Assembly (NCBI GenBank): GCA_037200965.1
Contig: JBBCGK010000001.1
Span: 32,001-96,000, forward strand
Length of the DNA: 64,000 bases
From: a bacterium
GTDB lineage: Bacteria; Patescibacteriota; Minisyncoccia; Phycocordibacterales; Phycocordibacteraceae
Direction of reading: 5' to 3'
The stretch's first letter is position 1, and each line of letters starts with the position of its first letter. A program made the translations under genes and the position numbers. Positions 15,973 through 44,430 of the stretch are shown here, piece after piece. The notes under the pieces are model-generated. The model had not been told where the DNA came from and made no database searches. It worked only from the letters and a program-made list of their open reading frames with translations.

Positions 15973-17769
15973 ATGAAGAACCAGCCAACAAAAGTAAATC
16001 TCGCCTCCGCAAATCTCTCCGAGGAGAAGCTGTTTGAGTTGCGGCGTATCCTTCCCGAAGCGTTCAGCGAAAACAAAATTGACTGGGAGAAGCTCCGCAC
16101 GGTTCTTGGCGACGCGGTGGATGCTCATATCGAGAAGTTCGGCTTTACCTGGGCGGGCAAGGGCAACGCCATCAAGAATGTTTTGATACCGAGCAAGGCC
16201 ACGCTCAACCCCGCTCCCGACGAGAGTGTGATGTTCGACGAGAGCCAGAATCTTTTTATCGAGGGCGACAACCTCGAAGTCTTGAAGCTTTTGCAAAAGG
16301 CGTACTTTGAGAAGGTGAAGATGATTTATATAGACCCGCCGTACAACACCGGCGGCGACTTCGTGTACAAGGACAACTTTACCGCACCGCTTGATAACTA
16401 CCTCCATCAGACCGGCCAGAAGAACGGCAACGGCGAGCATCTCACGACAAACAAGGAAACCAACGGCCGCTTCCACAGCGATTGGCTCTCAATGATGTAT
16501 CCGCGTCTCAAGCTCGCGTGGAATCTTTTGCGCGACGACGGCGTTATCTTCATCAGCATTGATGATAACGAGGTGCATCATCTCCGCATATTGCTAAATG
16601 AAGTGTTTGGCGAAGAAAACTTTATTGGTGAGTTTATCGTCGTACGTGCAGAAGGGGGTGGTTTAGCACATCAGTATGTGAAAGGACATGATTATCTGCT
16701 TGCATACGCAAAGTCTATTACAGACTTTGAACCACTCCGTCGCCCGAAAGATATTAGAGGCAAAATTATTGAGAAAGACGGCAAGGAATACTGGATAGAA
16801 GAAGACTGGCTCCGCCGAGAGTTCGGTAAGTACGGCACTCTCCTATACGAAGACATTGAGGAAGTGAAGGGGGCTAACAAGAAAGCGGAAATTGACGCTG
16901 GTTTGCAGAGCGGAGAGTATCAACTGATAAAGAAAAATGGCGGCCATATTGTTGGTCGACTTCGCCTAATTGAAGAAGATGGCTCCAAGTTCTACAGCAT
17001 CCTCAAACATCTTTCTGCGAGGGGAAACGATGATTTGCAGGAATTGGAAATGGGCAAACTCTTTGACTTTCCAAAGCCGGTATCTTTGCTGCGCGAACTC
17101 ATTTTGGGAGCCACGTTCTTTAGTAAGAATGACGGCGATATTATTCTCGACTTTTTCGCTGGCTCTGGTACCACGGCTCATGCTGTAATGGCACAAAATG
17201 CGGAAGATGGAGGCAATCGAAAGTGGATTGCTGTTCAACTACCGGAGAAGACCGAGAGCGATAGCGAAGCGTTCAAAGCCGGATACAAAACTATTGCCGA
17301 CCTTACTAAAGAACGTATACGCCGCGCCGCAAAGAAGCTAGAAAATACTGATGGCTTCAAAATCTTCAAGCTCGCAGCATCAAACTACCCCGAGAACGCT
17401 TTTGAGTTCGACCCAGATAAAACAGAAGACGAGAACAAAGCCGCCTTCGAGGACTACTTGAAGCACGCAAAGCGCGCCAAGCTTATTGACGACCTAGACG
17501 AGACGAGCGTCATCTACGAAAACATCGTCAAGGAAGGATTCTCGCTCAACTCCAAGATTCAGGAAGGCGTGCCAGGAAACAACAAGGTCTACACCATCAC
17601 CGACGGCGACCGGCAGTTTTCTATCTGCCTCGACCGTTCGATTGATGACACGACCGTAAAGAACATCACGGAGTGGGCTAAAGGAGCGACCTTTATCTGC
17701 TTCGATAATGCGCTCTCTGACAGCCAGAAAGCAAACCTCGGCCTCCACGTGGAGCTGAAAACGATATAA
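15973..17769 (+). CDS. mod: Type III restriction-modification Mod subunit (N6-adenine DNA methyltransferase)
   Basis: Motif IV IDPPYNTGGDF precedes motif I DFFAGSGTTAHA (beta-class order). ATG at 15973. The track ORF starts earlier in an overlapping frame. Confidence 0.9.
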   Translation: MKNQPTKVNLASANLSEEKLFELRRILPEAFSENKIDWEKLRTVLGDAVDAHIEKFGFTWAGKGNAIKNVLIPSKATLNPAPDESVMFDESQNLFIEGDNLEVLKLLQKAYFEKVKMIYIDPPYNTGGDFVYKDNFTAPLDNYLHQTGQKNGNGEHLTTNKETNGRFHSDWLSMMYPRLKLAWNLLRDDGVIFISIDDNEVHHLRILLNEVFGEENFIGEFIVVRAEGGGLAHQYVKGHDYLLAYAKSITDFEPLRRPKDIRGKIIEKDGKEYWIEEDWLRREFGKYGTLLYEDIEEVKGANKKAEIDAGLQSGEYQLIKKNGGHIVGRLRLIEEDGSKFYSILKHLSARGNDDLQELEMGKLFDFPKPVSLLRELILGATFFSKNDGDIILDFFAGSGTTAHAVMAQNAEDGGNRKWIAVQLPEKTESDSEAFKAGYKTIADLTKERIRRAAKKLENTDGFKIFKLAASNYPENAFEFDPDKTEDENKAAFEDYLKHAKRAKLIDDLDETSVIYENIVKEGFSLNSKIQEGVPGNNKVYTITDGDRQFSICLDRSIDDTTVKNITEWAKGATFICFDNALSDSQKANLGLHVELKTI

Positions 17770-35621: not shown

Positions 35622-36065
35622 ATGGAAGCCCTCATCACCACCTTCGGCGTCGACTGGCGAAGCCTCGCGCTTGAGGTGGTGAACTTCGGCATCCTGGTCG
35701 CGCTTTTGACCTGGCTTTTGTATAAGCCGGTCCTCAAGATGGTGAAGGAGCGGGAACAGGTCGTCGCCAAGGGCGTCGAGGACGCCGAGGAAGCGGCAAA
35801 GAAGCTCTCGGAGGCGGACGCGAAGGCCCTCGAACGCTCGAAAGCGGCCGAGAAGGAAGCAGAAGAGACCGTGCAGACGGCGCGCGGGGAGGCTTCCGGG
35901 GAGAAGGCGCGGCTCCTTGCAGAAGCGCAGGCGAGGGCTGCCGCGGTCGAGCGCGATGCGGAAGCGCGGGCAAAGGAATCGGCGGAACGCGCGAAGCGGG
36001 AAAGCGAGAAGGACATCGCACGCGTCGCGCTTCTTGCCGCCGAGAAGCTCATGAAGACCAAATGA
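35622..36065 (+). CDS. atpF: F0F1 ATP synthase subunit b
   Basis: N-terminal TM then a long charged helix. Confidence 0.8.
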   Translation: MEALITTFGVDWRSLALEVVNFGILVALLTWLLYKPVLKMVKEREQVVAKGVEDAEEAAKKLSEADAKALERSKAAEKEAEETVQTARGEASGEKARLLAEAQARAAAVERDAEARAKESAERAKRESEKDIARVALLAAEKLMKTK

Positions 36066-36301
36066 CCTACGAAACCCTCGTCGAGCACTTGAAGCGCACC
36101 GGCCGGATGAAGCTCCTGCCGAGAATTTTGAGGGAACTCAAGATGAAGGAAGCGCGAGCGCGGAAGCTCGCGCCCCGGAAGGAGACGGCGGAAGAAAGTC
36201 CCGCGCTCATCAGCGGCTCTCGCTCGATAGAGAACGGCATCCTCACGGACACCACGGGAAAGCGGGCGCTCCTTGAGATTTATAAGAAAGTCACGGCCTA
36301 A
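36062..36301 (+). CDS. atpH: very short ATP synthase delta(OSCP)-like subunit (79 aa)
   Basis: Sits in the delta slot between b and alpha, with a 4-nt overlap. Only the C-terminal-like segment is present. Confidence 0.5.
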   Translation: MTYETLVEHLKRTGRMKLLPRILRELKMKEARARKLAPRKETAEESPALISGSRSIENGILTDTTGKRALLEIYKKVTA

Positions 36302-36303
36302 GC

Positions 36304-37851
36304 ATGCAAAATATCATCGAGAAAATAGAGCGCGAGATCGCGGCCTGGAAGCCGGAGGGAGGCTCCGAGGAGGTCGGCATCGTCCGCACGACGGGCGATG
36401 GCATCGCCGAGATCGACGGACTCTCAGGAGCCGTGATGACGGAAATGGTGCTGTTCGACCCGACCTTCGACCGCTCGCTTGAGGACGCGCTCAAAGATCC
36501 TTCGCCCGTATACGGCCTTGTCCTCAACCTCGAAGAGGACAGCGTGCGCGCCGTCATTCTCGGAGATTCTTCGAAGGTGTATGAAGGCATGCTCGTCCGG
36601 AAGCTCGGGCGTAGGCTCTCGATTCCCGTGGGCGATGCGCTCGTGGGCCGCGTGGTTAATGCGCTTGGAGAGCCGGTCGACGGCAAGGGTCCGGTCAAAG
36701 AGACGAAAGACCTTCCGATCGAGCGCGAGGCATACGGCGTCATCGACCGCGCTCCCGTGAACGTGCCTTTGCATACCGGCATAAAGGCTATCGACGCCAT
36801 GATCCCGATCGGCCGCGGCCAGCGCGAGCTCATCATCGGGGATCGCGGCGTCGGGAAGACCGTGATCGCGATCGACACCATTTTGAACCAGCTCTCCGAG
36901 CCCGAAGCGTCCCGTCCCGTCTGCATCTATGTCGCCATCGGCCAGAAGGAGTCGAAGACCGCGAAGCTCGTCGCGGAGCTCGAGGAGAAAGGCGCGATGG
37001 CGTACTCGATCGTCGTTACCGCTCCCGCTTCGAGTCCCGCCGCGCTTCAGTATCTCGCCCCGTTTGCAGGCGCGACGATCGGCGAGCATTTCATGGAACA
37101 AGGCAAGGACGCGCTCGTCGTATATGACGACCTCTCGAAACAGGCAGTCGCGTATCGCCAAATGTCGCTCCTTCTTCGCCGCCCGCCGGGCCGCGAAGCA
37201 TATCCGGGCGACATCTTCTATCTCCACTCGCGCCTTCTCGAGCGCGCGGCGAAGCTTTCCAAAGAGAAGGGCGGCGGCTCCCTCACGGCGCTTCCTATCA
37301 TCGAAACCCAGGAAGGCGACGTGTCGGCATACATCCCGACGAACGTGATCTCGATCACGGACGGCCAGATATTCCTCGAAGCGAACCTCTTCAACCAGGG
37401 GCTTCGCCCGGCCATTAACGTCGGCATCTCGGTCTCGCGCGTGGGCAGCAATGCGCAGACCAAGGCGATGAAGAAGGTCTCGGGGAAGATCAAGCTTGAA
37501 CTTGCCCAGTTCCGCGAGCTTGAAGCCTTCATGCAGTTCTCTTCGGATCTCGACGCCGAGACCAAGAAGCGCATCGACTCCGGCCGCCGCCTTACGGAAG
37601 TCCTCAAGCAGAATAAGGGAGAGCCTCTGCCGTTTGAGATGGAGGCAGCTGTCATCTATGCCGCGACGAATGGGTACTTCGATCGCTTCGCTCCGGAAGA
37701 GGCGAGCCAGGCAGAAGCGAAGCTTAGGGACTTCCTGCTTCGCGAAGGAAAAGATGCTCTCTCGGCTATCCGCGAAGGCAAGCAGATCGATGAGGAGACG
37801 GAAGGGAAGCTCAAGAAGGTTCTCGATACGTTTGCGGCACACGTGAGCTAA
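36304..37851 (+). CDS. atpA: F0F1 ATP synthase subunit alpha
   Basis: 515 aa. Walker A GDRGVGKT. Confidence 0.95.
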   Translation: MQNIIEKIEREIAAWKPEGGSEEVGIVRTTGDGIAEIDGLSGAVMTEMVLFDPTFDRSLEDALKDPSPVYGLVLNLEEDSVRAVILGDSSKVYEGMLVRKLGRRLSIPVGDALVGRVVNALGEPVDGKGPVKETKDLPIEREAYGVIDRAPVNVPLHTGIKAIDAMIPIGRGQRELIIGDRGVGKTVIAIDTILNQLSEPEASRPVCIYVAIGQKESKTAKLVAELEEKGAMAYSIVVTAPASSPAALQYLAPFAGATIGEHFMEQGKDALVVYDDLSKQAVAYRQMSLLLRRPPGREAYPGDIFYLHSRLLERAAKLSKEKGGGSLTALPIIETQEGDVSAYIPTNVISITDGQIFLEANLFNQGLRPAINVGISVSRVGSNAQTKAMKKVSGKIKLELAQFRELEAFMQFSSDLDAETKKRIDSGRRLTEVLKQNKGEPLPFEMEAAVIYAATNGYFDRFAPEEASQAEAKLRDFLLREGKDALSAIREGKQIDEETEGKLKKVLDTFAAHVS

Positions 37852-37854
37852 AGC

Positions 37855-38763
37855 ATGGCCCTCAAGGACATCAAATCGAAGATAAAGGCGACGCAGCGGA
37901 CCAACAAGGTCACGCACGCGATGGAGGCTGTCTCTGCCGTGAAGATGAGAAAGACCCAAGGATCGGCGCTCGCAGGACGCCCGTATGCGAGAGCCGCACT
38001 CGCAATTCTTGCACGGCTTTCGGGGAGTAGCGATCTCGCGCGCCATCCGCTCGCGACACTTCGGCCCGTGAAGAAGACTGCCTTCGTCGTGATTACGAGC
38101 GACAAGGGGCTTGCAGGTGCCTTGAATGCAAACGTACTCAAAGCCGCGGCGCAGGCGCTTGAGGGGAAAGCGCAAGAGAGCATCACCATCTTCGCGTACG
38201 GCCGCAAGGGTTCGGAGTATTTCTCACGCCGCAGCTACCGTATCAAGAAGACTTTCGAGAACAAGAGCGATACTATCGAGCTTTCCGGCATGGAAGAGCT
38301 CTCGCTGGAACTCTCGGCAGGATTCCTTGCCGGGGAATTCGACGAAGTCCTTGCGGTCTATAGCAACTTCAAGAGCACGTTCGAGCAGGCGCCGACGGTA
38401 CGGAAACTCCTCCCGCTTTCCCTTTCCGCCGTGTCGGAGCTGGTTTCCGACATCGCTCCGGAGAAAGGGAAGTTCGCGGAGACCGCTCCGATCAAGGCAC
38501 CTCCGGCCTACACTATCGAGCCCTCGGCCGGGGAAGTGCTCGGCGTGCTTATCCCGAAGCTCGTCGCCGTCTCCCTCTATCACATGCTCCTTGAGGCGAA
38601 GGCGTCCGAGCATTCGGCGCGGATGATCGCCATGAAGAACGCGTCGGAGAAGTCGGAGGAGGTGGCGCACGACCTCACGCGCCTCTTCAACAAGATCCGT
38701 CAGGCGGCGATCACGCGGGAGGTGTCGGAGATCGTTGGCGGGCGGGAGGCGCTTGCTTCATGA
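37855..38763 (+). CDS. atpG: F0F1 ATP synthase subunit gamma
   Basis: 302 aa. N-terminal MALKDIKSKIKATQRTNKVTHAME and a C-terminal helix. Confidence 0.9.
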   Translation: MALKDIKSKIKATQRTNKVTHAMEAVSAVKMRKTQGSALAGRPYARAALAILARLSGSSDLARHPLATLRPVKKTAFVVITSDKGLAGALNANVLKAAAQALEGKAQESITIFAYGRKGSEYFSRRSYRIKKTFENKSDTIELSGMEELSLELSAGFLAGEFDEVLAVYSNFKSTFEQAPTVRKLLPLSLSAVSELVSDIAPEKGKFAETAPIKAPPAYTIEPSAGEVLGVLIPKLVAVSLYHMLLEAKASEHSARMIAMKNASEKSEEVAHDLTRLFNKIRQAAITREVSEIVGGREALAS

Positions 38764-38766
38764 CGC

Positions 38767-39156
38767 ATGCCGAAAGACTATACGAAATGGCACGAGGTCA
38801 AGTCCGCGATCGAAGAACACAGGAATCCCCCGTTCTTCAACGAGCGCGAGGTATGGTGGAGCTCGCTCGGCGCGAATATCGGAACGGAACAGGACGGGAA
38901 GAACGCCCGGTTTGAGCGTCCGGTAATCATCGTGCGCAAATTCAATAAGGACTTGTTCTGGGGCGTACCAGCCACGCTCCAGAGCAAGGATGACGCATTC
39001 CATTTCGGCTTCATGCTTTCGGGAATCGAGCAGCGCGCGATCGTCTCGCAAATCCGCACATTGAGCGCGAAACGGCTCATCCGCCGCATCGGCAAGCTGC
39101 CCGAGCCGAAGTTCGCAGGACTTAAGGAGGCGATCGAATCCTTGATGAGGCGATAA
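38767..39156 (+). CDS. PemK/MazF-family toxin-like protein inserted in the atp operon
   Basis: 129 aa. WHEVKSAIEEH...FFNEREVWWSSLGANIGTEQDGKNARFERPVIIVRKFN...FWGVPATLQSK...AIVSQIRTLSAKRLIRRIGKL matches the roughly 130-aa PemK/MazF-like family pattern. The ATG is 4 nt after the atpG stop. Confidence 0.6.
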   Translation: MPKDYTKWHEVKSAIEEHRNPPFFNEREVWWSSLGANIGTEQDGKNARFERPVIIVRKFNKDLFWGVPATLQSKDDAFHFGFMLSGIEQRAIVSQIRTLSAKRLIRRIGKLPEPKFAGLKEAIESLMRR

Positions 39157-39258
39157 ACGAAGCGAACCCCTTGCGGGGTTCTCGGGTGCCTAACGGCAAT
39201 TTACCCGGTCACTATATCCCCTCGGGGATGAAAAGTCAATTAACGACCGAAGCGAGGC

Positions 39259-39288
39259 TTGTGGACGGCACTCCGCATCGGGTATAAT
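39259..39288 (+). promoter_or_regulatory. internal promoter TTGTGG-18 nt-TATAAT upstream of atpD
   Basis: CTTGTGGACGGCACTCCGCATCGGGTATAAT lies in the 380-nt gap that the MazF-like insertion created. Confidence 0.35.
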
Positions 39289-39444
39289 CGTGTCATACGC
39301 CTGATACACCGGCCGAACCGGAGGGATCAGGCTCGGGCGGACCGGGCGTTATCGGCACTAGCTCGGCCTGCCGACGTCGCGAAAGCGATACCCCGCGTGC
39401 CAAGCCTTCCCGCGAAGTTCGGAAGTAGCGGGGCGGGCGGGTAA

Positions 39445-40907
<1,463 letters not shown>

Positions 40908-40908
<1 letters not shown>

Positions 40909-43425: not shown

Positions 43426-44430
43426 TTGAATTCTAGCTTGAAACGCAACAACCCGTATTGAAAAGCGCATACCCGCAGGTACGCTAGGAGTGTTGAATCA
43501 CCTAAGCACCAACGGGTATGCATACACACAATACGCGCGACATGCGCGTTTCGCTAGGCGCGCTCCTGCGCGCTGGTGTGAAGAAAGCTGGGATCGCGCG
43601 GCAACTGGGCGTCCACCGCTCGACCATCTCAAGGGAGTTGAAACGGAACGCGAAGAAGAACGGGCGGTATCACGCCACGCACGCGGACGTGCGTGCGAAG
43701 GCACGCCGCATGAAGAGCAAGGAGGCGGGACGCCTCCTTGCAAACAATCAGCAGTTGGCTGACCTTGTCGAGGCACTCCTTGACCCACTCGTCTCTCCAG
43801 AGGTGATCGCACACCTTCTCGACATATCGCACGAGACGATATACGCGTGGCTATATCGCACCCGTCCTGATCTGTTGGCTCGTCTGCCGCAGCGAGGAAG
43901 GAAGCGCCGCCGATATGGCTCAAAGCGTACGCAGAAACAAGGATGGACCAAGAACGTGCGTTCCATTGAGGAGCGCACAGAACCTGGCTGGGAGGGCGAT
44001 ACCGTCAAAGGCGCAGGTCGTGAACGCATCCTCACCCACGTGCACCAGAGCTTGTATCTCGTTGCCGACCTAATCCCGAACGGCACGGCAGATGTCGTGC
44101 ATGCGGTACTGAAGTCGCATCAGAAAGTCACCGGGACCATCACGTACGACCGCGGGAGCGAGTTCGCACTCTGGCAGTTCATTGAACGTGATACCGATGC
44201 CACCGTGTACTTCGCACACGCACACCATCCGTGGGAGCGCGGGAAGAACGAGAATACCAATGGCCGCCTGCGGCGACCATTCCCCAAACGGCTGAACCTG
44301 GGTACCATATCCAAAGACGACCTTGCGGACGTGGTGGACCTCATGAACCACACGCCGCGGAAGTCTCTCTCCTGGCAGACCTCGTGCGTGCGCTTTGGGA
44401 AGGCGTGTTGCGTTTCAGATTAGAATTCAA
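43426..44430 (+). mobile_element. IS30-family insertion sequence, complete copy 2
   Basis: Imperfect terminal inverted repeats TTGAATTCTAGCTTGAAACGCAACAAC (left) and TTGAATTCTAATCTGAAACGCAACACG (right, reverse complement) enclose the transposase. Confidence 0.8.
43518..44423 (+). CDS. IS30-family transposase (HTH plus DDE integrase core)
   Basis: 301 aa. N-terminal HTH (GIARQLGVHRSTISRELKRN) and integrase core (DTVKG...THVHQ...YDRGSEF). The stop codon lies inside the right inverted repeat. Confidence 0.85.
   Translation: MHTHNTRDMRVSLGALLRAGVKKAGIARQLGVHRSTISRELKRNAKKNGRYHATHADVRAKARRMKSKEAGRLLANNQQLADLVEALLDPLVSPEVIAHLLDISHETIYAWLYRTRPDLLARLPQRGRKRRRYGSKRTQKQGWTKNVRSIEERTEPGWEGDTVKGAGRERILTHVHQSLYLVADLIPNGTADVVHAVLKSHQKVTGTITYDRGSEFALWQFIERDTDATVYFAHAHHPWERGKNENTNGRLRRPFPKRLNLGTISKDDLADVVDLMNHTPRKSLSWQTSCVRFGKACCVSD

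Follow-up and report, generated by a model that had tools for sequence, protein, structure and literature searches.

The locus described here raises the question why a gene for a MazF-like toxin should stand within an ATP synthase operon with no antitoxin gene beside it. It lies in a 64,000-nucleotide stretch of DNA (the window; contig JBBCGK010000001.1 of assembly GCA_037200965.1, Patescibacteriota), in which gene X, encoding 129 amino acids, is found between atpG and atpD (Table 1). An earlier note on this DNA had read X as a PemK/MazF-like toxin gene without a partner and as a growth-control module wired into the central energy operon. The family assignment was borne out; the missing partner was not, as a conserved convergent gene for a small RNA (39155-39239, minus strand) was found directly behind X, as in nearly all members of the family. 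We consider it probable that X and this RNA form a module in which a MazF/PemK toxin is paired with a small-RNA antitoxin instead of a protein antitoxin, a variant lying between type I and type III toxin-antitoxin systems. The object of interest would then be the conserved module of MazF and convergent small RNA, not its position among the atp genes.

The open reading frame (ORF) of X was confirmed, and the sequence blocks named in the earlier note (EVWWSSLGANIGTEQDGK, RPVIIVRKFN and SQIRTLSAKRL) were all present. Membership in the PemK/MazF family was supported alike by Pfam, by a profile comparison with the Protein Data Bank (PDB), by an AlphaFold2 (AF2) model, by Foldseek and by the residues aligned to catalytic ones. 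The Pfam profile PemK_toxin (PF02452), present in all 114 homologues, matched residues 27-125 of X over profile positions 3-107 of 109 with 36.7 bits (cutoff 23.1; E=5.3e-9). A profile made from 46 family members matched B. subtilis MazF/EndoA (4mdx, 1ne8) with E=7e-8 and also the MazF structures of S. aureus, B. anthracis and E. coli. In the alignment to 4mdx, the family-invariant residues R51 and T70 (PATLQSK) fell on R25 and T48, which we take to be the catalytic residues of B. subtilis MazF. The AF2 model reached a pLDDT of 84.8 and a pTM of 0.78, and its top 50 Foldseek matches in the PDB were all MazF proteins (probability 1.0, TM 0.57-0.77, and 0.66-0.75 for the best of them). Neither NCBIfam nor PADLOC, which covers defence-system proteins, gave a match, and the Pfam matches of X with E up to 1 included no ToxN-type family. 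X is thus predicted, from all of these comparisons, to be a real MazF-type endoribonuclease toxin. Compared with canonical MazF, members of the family carry an additional helix at the N terminus (residues 5-18), the loop between beta1 and beta2 is longer and flexible, and W8 and K12, both in that helix, as well as N37 and E41 are family-specific invariant residues.

Between the atpG stop codon TGA (38761-38763) and the toxin ATG lie only three nucleotides, cgc. No Shine-Dalgarno sequence was found at a usable distance; in the closest candidate, GGGAGG, the last base lies 17 nt upstream, at too great a distance, and translation by termination-reinitiation after atpG is plausible. The GC content at third codon positions (GC3) of the toxin gene is 0.76, the same as that of the atp genes, so that it has not arrived recently from a distant genome. 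Since the arrangement was base-for-base identical in three more independent assemblies (L007-L009), it is no assembly artefact.

To our knowledge, MazF proteins are textbook type II toxins and are always described with a protein antitoxin. Our search for such a partner covered 82 non-redundant loci of the toxin family; the 130 nt past the toxin stop codon were listed for 87 loci (7 from exact-protein look-ups and 80 from a species-genome scan). All ORFs of 35-160 amino acids within 600 nt of the toxin gene were clustered, and the only ORFs that recurred across these loci overlapped the toxin gene and were artefacts of its other frames. The alternative and antisense frames of the toxin gene contained 4.8-12 stops on average, equal to codon-shuffled controls, and none was kept open. 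The ORF clustering and the stop-codon counts rule out a protein antitoxin encoded by an adjacent or overlapping gene; the earlier note, which had seen no antitoxin-sized partner ORF, was correct on this point, and the toxin family appears to have no conserved protein partner at its loci.

The partner that we propose is an RNA. A consensus scanner applied to positions 38000-40000 on both strands returned one promoter-like site (10 of 12 matches) and one terminator-like site, both on the minus strand. The predicted RNA comprises the 5' leader GUAAAU (39204-39199), the hairpin P1, UGCC-GUUA-GGCA (39198-39187), the linker CCCGA (39186-39182) and the hairpin P2, GAACCCC-GCAA-GGGGUUC (39181-39164), followed by the tail GCUUCGUUUA. 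The P2 stem together with the tail GCTTCGTTTA makes up the predicted terminator, the U-tail of which overlaps the toxin stop codon. As six bases separate the -10 box from the conserved leader, the start was placed at about G39204. The covariance model R1, built from 35 elements of class 1, matched the window only once in 64 kb, at 39149-39207 on the minus strand (51.3 bits, E=4.7e-12), and folding of the element gave -25.1 kcal/mol (z=-2.6). Between the window and the family locus L013, the RNA element is 94% identical over 48 nt, the toxins being 70% identical.

The toxin family is encoded by at least 557 species genomes, almost all of them metagenome-assembled genomes of Patescibacteria. In the 87 loci listed, the architecture on the strand opposite the toxin gene was near-universal. 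It starts with TTGACA, a spacer of 16-18 nt, a TATAAT-like box (often with TGn), 6 nt and an A/G-C/U-AAAU leader, the distance from promoter to leader being fixed at 6 nt in most loci. The element continues with P1, a GC hairpin of 3-4 bp with a tetraloop (GGC-UUCG-GCC or UGCC-GUUA-GGCA). After a short linker, CCGAG or one like it, comes P2, a longer hairpin of variable sequence, from which about half of the elements lead with UCGUUUUUU into the toxin stop codon. With R1 and R2 together, the latter a sequence-only model for class 2 elements that added 25 loci, 74 of the 82 loci had the element where the toxin gene ends, on the strand opposite to it. With a leave-one-out weight matrix of 23 nt and inspection included, it was found in 81 of 82, L084 being the exception; by itself, the matrix, run over both strands of each locus of about 8 kb, had its best site within the target of 220 nt for 64 of the 82 (about 1 expected). 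A strict composite rule (promoter of at least 9 of 12 matches, GC-only P1, P2 hairpin) held in 49 of 82 loci and was too strict for variant P1 stems. In 653 kb of family loci, every strong R1 match, bar a few extra copies, was antisense to the toxin gene and at its 3' end. In 427 kb of atp loci from relatives R1 gave no significant match (best E=0.75), a set in which it misses the class 2 element seen by eye or with R2 in the toxin carriers L109 and L141. At E up to 1, no Rfam 15 family matched the window element or 15 related loci, and neither this RNA nor an RNA partner for a MazF toxin was found described in open-access text and bioRxiv literature.

This distribution bears on the simplest reading of the locus, a solitary MazF without any partner that exerts growth control in the ATP synthase operon, in which case the hairpins would be terminators and the promoter match a chance event. 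The lack of a partner ORF and the tight coupling of the gene start to atpG are what such a toxin would show. We nevertheless give this reading hardly any credence: the element downstream is conserved in sequence, is specific to one strand and hardly ever occurs except behind toxin genes of this family, the family stands behind many unrelated genes, and the atp operon of close relatives has no toxin.

The structure of the element indicates the strand on which it is read. RNAalifold on a plain MAFFT alignment gave 5 pairs, with misaligned hairpins, and the structure analysis used a hand-given structure, realignment with the covariance model and a hairpin parser. Read on the minus strand, 31 of 40 P2 tetraloops were of the GNRA or UNCG type, against 1 of 40 on the sense strand, and the P1 loop was UUCG in 22 of 53 elements, against none on the sense strand. 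Compensatory changes were seen at all 7 basal pairs of P2, and none of 500 shuffles reached the observed covariation; the 53 elements had 50 distinct P2 sequences, and the third pair of P1 was C-G in 29 and G-C in 24. In some homologues of the toxin, translation extends across the complement of the element in one frame (tails ...TDPLRGPRVPNGNL), in others it does so in a second frame (...GPLAGSSSA, with the stop at the TAA in the P1 loop), and in others, the window included, it stops before the element; on account of these different readings the element is conserved at the nucleotide level. Throughout the phylum, in which toxin identity is only about 40%, the unpaired leader and linker were conserved. 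A peptide encoded by the small RNA was considered and rejected, since the AUG/UUG of the leader is in different frames between the two P1 subtypes and P2 is hypervariable.

These data also speak to the possibility that the DNA behind the toxin gene is no RNA gene but a DNA-level site for recombination or insertion that moves the module. P1 is a short palindrome, and the module occurs at many unrelated sites and, in lineages not most closely related to one another, at one and the same atpG junction, which would fit a mobile site. However, no recombinase or transposase travels with the module, and a near-consensus promoter with fixed spacing, the strand bias of the tetraloops and the compensatory changes point to a transcribed RNA. 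A site of this kind is, in our opinion, very improbable.

A predicted promoter, a predicted terminator and complementarity to the toxin mRNA are present and conserved in the family. We think it quite likely that the small RNA is the antitoxin of the module. In the mechanism that we propose, the toxin gene, often without an evident promoter or ribosome-binding site of its own, would share the transcript of the host gene and depend on reinitiation for its translation. The RNA, some 50-60 nt long, would be made in excess from its own near-consensus promoter on the opposite strand and would end, in about half of the loci including the window, in an intrinsic terminator overlapping the toxin stop codon. 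If this is true, the toxin dose would follow the host operon, here that of the ATP synthase, and the antidote would come from its own strong promoter.

For the way in which the RNA would act we lean, with somewhat less than even confidence, towards direct binding to the toxin protein as in type III systems, and favour this over an antisense mechanism for four reasons. The unpaired leader and linker are conserved throughout the phylum and cis-antisense needs no fixed sequence; the loops are rigid tetraloops, UUCG and GNRA, which make poor kissing loops; no cognate-specific pairing with the toxin translation start was seen (cognate -17.1 versus non-cognate -16.8 kcal/mol, p=0.46); and the toxin has gained family-specific invariant surface features. 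The competing proposal is a pure cis-antisense RNA of the type I kind, which would pair with the 3' end of the toxin mRNA, whereupon RNase III would cut and 3' exonucleases would remove the ORF; ribosomes would be stalled by the duplex wherever the ORF extends across the element. In favour of this, the arrangement is convergent, the complementarity is perfect over the whole predicted RNA, and the hairpin at the stop codon is shared. Moreover, the mRNA should hold the target, there being no good terminator ahead of the element on the sense strand, and the last 15-17 codons of several homologues fall in the duplex region. Against it stand the first three observations named above and two further considerations, namely that 3' decay of a polycistronic host mRNA would harm the host gene too and that control at the mRNA level cannot neutralize a stable enzyme already made. 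We therefore regard pure antisense as rather unlikely.

Comparison with known systems places the module between established types. The type II systems MazEF/PemIK (B. subtilis EndoA-EndoAI, 4mdx and 4me7; M. tuberculosis MazEF-mt1, 6kyt) have the same toxin fold, sequence family and Arg/Thr residues. In contrast to them, the module has no adjacent MazE/PemI-type gene, carries a host gene (atpG here) upstream and has an RNA gene as partner. The pemK RNA motif of Rfam, which we take to be a candidate cis-regulator located ahead of pemK genes in Firmicutes, is likewise a conserved RNA structure tied to PemK-family genes, but it forms a 5' leader on the strand of the gene, and at E up to 1 it matched neither the element of the window nor any of 15 related loci. 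With the type III systems ToxIN, CptIN and TenpIN the module has in common an endoribonuclease toxin, a small structured RNA and the lack of a protein antitoxin. ToxN has a Kid/MazF-like fold, accommodates single-stranded RNA tails in its active-site grooves and cuts at AA/AU; the leader of the RNA described here contains AAAU. Type III antitoxins are tandem direct repeats that lie upstream on the strand of the toxin and are processed by it, whereas here a single unit (occasionally two) with its own promoter lies downstream on the opposite strand. A convergent layout is known from the type I systems par of E. faecalis (Fst/RNA II) and txpA/RatA and bsrG/SR4 of B. subtilis, which resemble the module in a strongly promoted RNA directed towards the toxin, a 3' overlap and a shared terminal hairpin. 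Type I toxins are usually small hydrophobic membrane peptides, whereas X is predicted to be a soluble MazF-fold RNase of 129 amino acids, and the RNA differs from those of type I in its phylum-conserved unpaired segments, its stable tetraloops and the lack of complementarity to the translation start. Type I pairs with an enzyme as toxin do exist, namely SymE/SymR and RalR/RalA (PMC4041452).

Taking these likenesses further, and more tentatively than for direct binding itself, we suggest that the module may represent an undescribed, phylum-wide class of toxin-antitoxin systems in which a MazF/PemK RNase is neutralized by a bound convergent RNA of about 50 nt, with type III logic without repeats, a type I layout and spread by docking behind essential genes. 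A number of points weigh against an RNA antitoxin of this kind. The convergent, 3'-overlapping, single-copy layout is type I-like and unlike known type III systems, and no tandem repeats were found in 37800-39600. Conservation of the leader could derive partly from constraints on the promoter or the sense strand. The terminator tail in the window is a weak U-tract, and in about 16 of the 53 parsed elements, those of class 2, the tail that follows P2 is rich in A, not in U, and an obvious terminator is lacking, so their transcript may be longer. The RNA, its ends and its abundance are predictions, and we infer expression, toxicity, neutralization and the mode of neutralization. Given that the literature searched consisted of open-access and bioRxiv texts, the module may also have been described before.

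The settings in which the toxin gene occurs argue for a mobile module. At about 20 of the 82 loci, an upstream gene on the same strand ends -4 to +24 nt from the toxin ATG. The genes behind which the toxin is docked encode, according to Pfam, UvrB, RpoB, TrmD, PurE, a PALP enzyme (TrpB-like), an ABC ATPase, a class-V aminotransferase and a restriction-modification methylase; other toxin genes follow groEL. Because the family sits behind so many unrelated genes, tight coupling to atpG is the family norm without any special link to energy metabolism. Several genomes carry divergent copies (L022/L031, L035/L078 and L053/L085), L073 has tandem copies, and at least one copy, in L061, is frameshifted and thus decayed. 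A phage origin of the module was ruled out by its near-absence from viral contigs, 2.9 million of which contained only 2 weak relatives of the toxin family.

Such variability has to be set against the view that X and the RNA are a non-toxic ribonucleoprotein or an enzyme-substrate pair, in which X would have been domesticated for RNA processing, with the RNA as its substrate, guide or regulator. The strict linkage of the two, the broad conservation of the family in reduced genomes, the GC3 shared with the host genes and the invariant W8, K12, N37 and E41 with the extra N-terminal helix, all absent from canonical MazF, would agree with this view. Yet the location varies, some genomes have several divergent copies or a frameshifted one, and the gene is missing at the atp locus of most close relatives, all of which marks a dispensable mobile module and not a housekeeping factor. 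The residues aligned to catalytic ones are also retained. A domesticated factor is accordingly improbable.

If the reading as a toxin with an RNA antitoxin is true, a large MazF subfamily with an RNA-only partner blurs the boundaries between types I, II and III, and an antitoxin can change from protein to RNA under a constant toxin fold. Patescibacteria, for which few defence or regulatory RNAs are known, would gain a widespread and testable small RNA. The docking close behind housekeeping genes suggests how a promoter-less selfish module persists in very small genomes. For annotation, the present label of these genes is 'type II toxin', with no partner given, and the RNA is unannotated. For the cell, an atp operon split by a head-on promoter is an expression problem.

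Some further features of the module were noted in individual loci. In the genomes with two modules (L022/L031, L035/L078, L053/L085), the small-RNA subtypes differ in P1 stem and loop, by which modules sharing a genome would be kept from acting on one another. Some loci (L073:400-1650, L018:4390-4545, L031:4374-4560) have a tandem pair of RNA units after a single toxin gene, or tandem toxin paralogues. Stand-alone toxin genes in L010:4940-5000 and L011:4960-5000 show, by eye, a -10-like box 6-7 nt before the ATG, which suggests leaderless mRNAs. In L004:1-4700 and L005:1-4075 the toxin module follows a gene-free stretch of about 4 kb with a LAGLIDADG ORF, probably a ribosomal RNA operon with an intron.

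Turning to the atp operon, the gene order was, as the earlier note had stated, canonical apart from X: a, c, b, a 79-amino-acid delta-like ORF, alpha, gamma, X, beta and epsilon. For comparison, 80 metagenomic loci with AtpG relatives (35-74% identical) were fetched, and atpA, atpG, atpD, atpC and the toxin gene were mapped on each. In the approximately 25 closest relatives (AtpG 62-74% identical), atpD follows atpG after 14-140 nt, with the exception of two loci, and only 3 of the 80 atp loci contain the toxin gene. X is thus an insertion, as had been proposed, and not a lineage-wide subunit or accessory of the ATP synthase. Judging from the different occupants found there (Table 1), the atpG-atpD junction is a general and recurrent insertion hot spot in this clade. 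With the family standing behind many unrelated genes elsewhere, the phrase 'wired into the central energy operon' read too much into the position. AtpG of the window is 74% identical to relatives without the insert and 63% to L013; the module has thus been repeatedly lost or has moved. Several occupants of the junction are nucleotide house-cleaning enzymes: ham1/ITPase genes lie at L109:4950-5540, named by eye from its translation, and at L013:1217-1768, and a YjjX-like NTPase, also named by eye, is among the occupants in the clade. The occupant of the atpA-atpG junction in L141 is at L141:1765-2310.

Table 1. Features at the atpG-atpD junction of the window and arrangements at the corresponding loci of relatives.
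Feature or locus	Position	Strand	Basis or arrangement
atpG (F1 gamma), 302 aa, host gene of the module	37855..38763	+	ORF; Pfam ATP-synt on the identical contig L007
MazF/PemK-fold toxin gene (X), 129 aa	38767..39156	+	ATG start; TAA stop 39154-39156
Predicted small RNA, ~50 nt	39155..39204	-	promoter, terminator, covariance model R1
Small-RNA promoter	39211..39239	-	TTGACT (39239-39234), 17-nt spacer, TATAGT (39216-39211)
Candidate atpD-atpC promoter, TTGTGG-18-TATAAT	39259..39288	+	read from sequence (TTGTGG 39259-39264, TATAAT 39283-39288)
GC-rich (64%) stretch, ends in palindrome	39289..39485	+	composition, fold
AT-rich spacer (31% GC), last 52 nt before atpD	39486..39537	+	composition; AT-rich spacers in relatives
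atpD (F1 beta)	39538..40908	+	ORF; tblastn against relatives starts at ATG 39538, 60-89% identity
atpC (F1 epsilon), 82 aa	40908-41156		ORF; after atpD
L109			atpG, toxin (45% identical), RNA element, ham1, atpD
L013			atpG, toxin (70% identical), RNA element, ham1 (Ham1p_like annotation)
L141			toxin module between atpA and atpG
L134	4412-4829		NUDIX gene between atpG and atpD; by eye from translation
L127	4469-4831		four-helix-bundle (23S IVS-type) ORF between atpG and atpD; by eye from translation
L123	2864-3414		RelB/DinJ-like and YafQ/RelE-like pair between atpG and atpD; by eye from translation

The insertion would consist of the module and about 240 nt of unexplained DNA between atpG and atpD. 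In this arrangement the toxin would be expressed along with atpBEFHAG, and atpDC would be reached by read-through, from a weak promoter or by both; the head-on promoter and the hairpins lie between. From the toxin gene to the ATG of atpD the gap measures 381 nt. The promoter reported there in the earlier note is present as a sequence, but it is weak: TTGTGG matches TTGACA at 3 of 6 positions, and the site is below the threshold of the consensus scanner. It stands back to back with the small-RNA promoter and is without comparative support, so that a role as candidate atpD promoter is plausible but weak.

The remainder of the gap falls into two parts of different composition. The GC-rich stretch showed no similarity to the fetched loci or to the rest of the window and no Pfam or Rfam match; it is probably part of the inserted DNA. 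A decayed ham1 gene, considered in view of L013 and L109, was rejected, there being no tblastx or blastn similarity and no Pfam match for the ORFs. The palindrome pointed out in the earlier note is real and perfect, with two arms of 16 nt each (39452-39467 and 39470-39485) and 2 nt between them. It is unique in the window, where the sole near match, at 16939, is inside a coding region, and this rules out a repeated element. GC-rich stretch and spacer together (39295-39540) fold with z=-4.1. The GC-rich stretch may serve as a leader of atpD, or it may give rise to an RNA of its own transcribed from the TTGTGG-18-TATAAT promoter. The usual atpG-atpD spacer of relatives is short and AT-rich, with AT-rich spacers of 14-50 nt, and the AT-rich segment before atpD is probably the native intergenic spacer.

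Three minor observations concern the surroundings of the junction. The delta-like ORF (36062-36301) gave no significant Pfam match, OSCP included, and epsilon has about the length of the N-terminal domain only, so that both look truncated. About 2.3 kb downstream of atpC, a 301-amino-acid ORF (43518-44423) with N-terminal HTH_23/HTH_38 looks like an IS30-type transposase. In three relatives (L096:4420-4545, L104:2440-2525 and L109:5440-5545), the start of atpD carries an insert of 90-110 nt that resembles a miniature inverted-repeat transposable element, with flanking inverted repeats CCCGTTAGAAAT...ATTTCTAACGGG and a duplicated ATGAAC.

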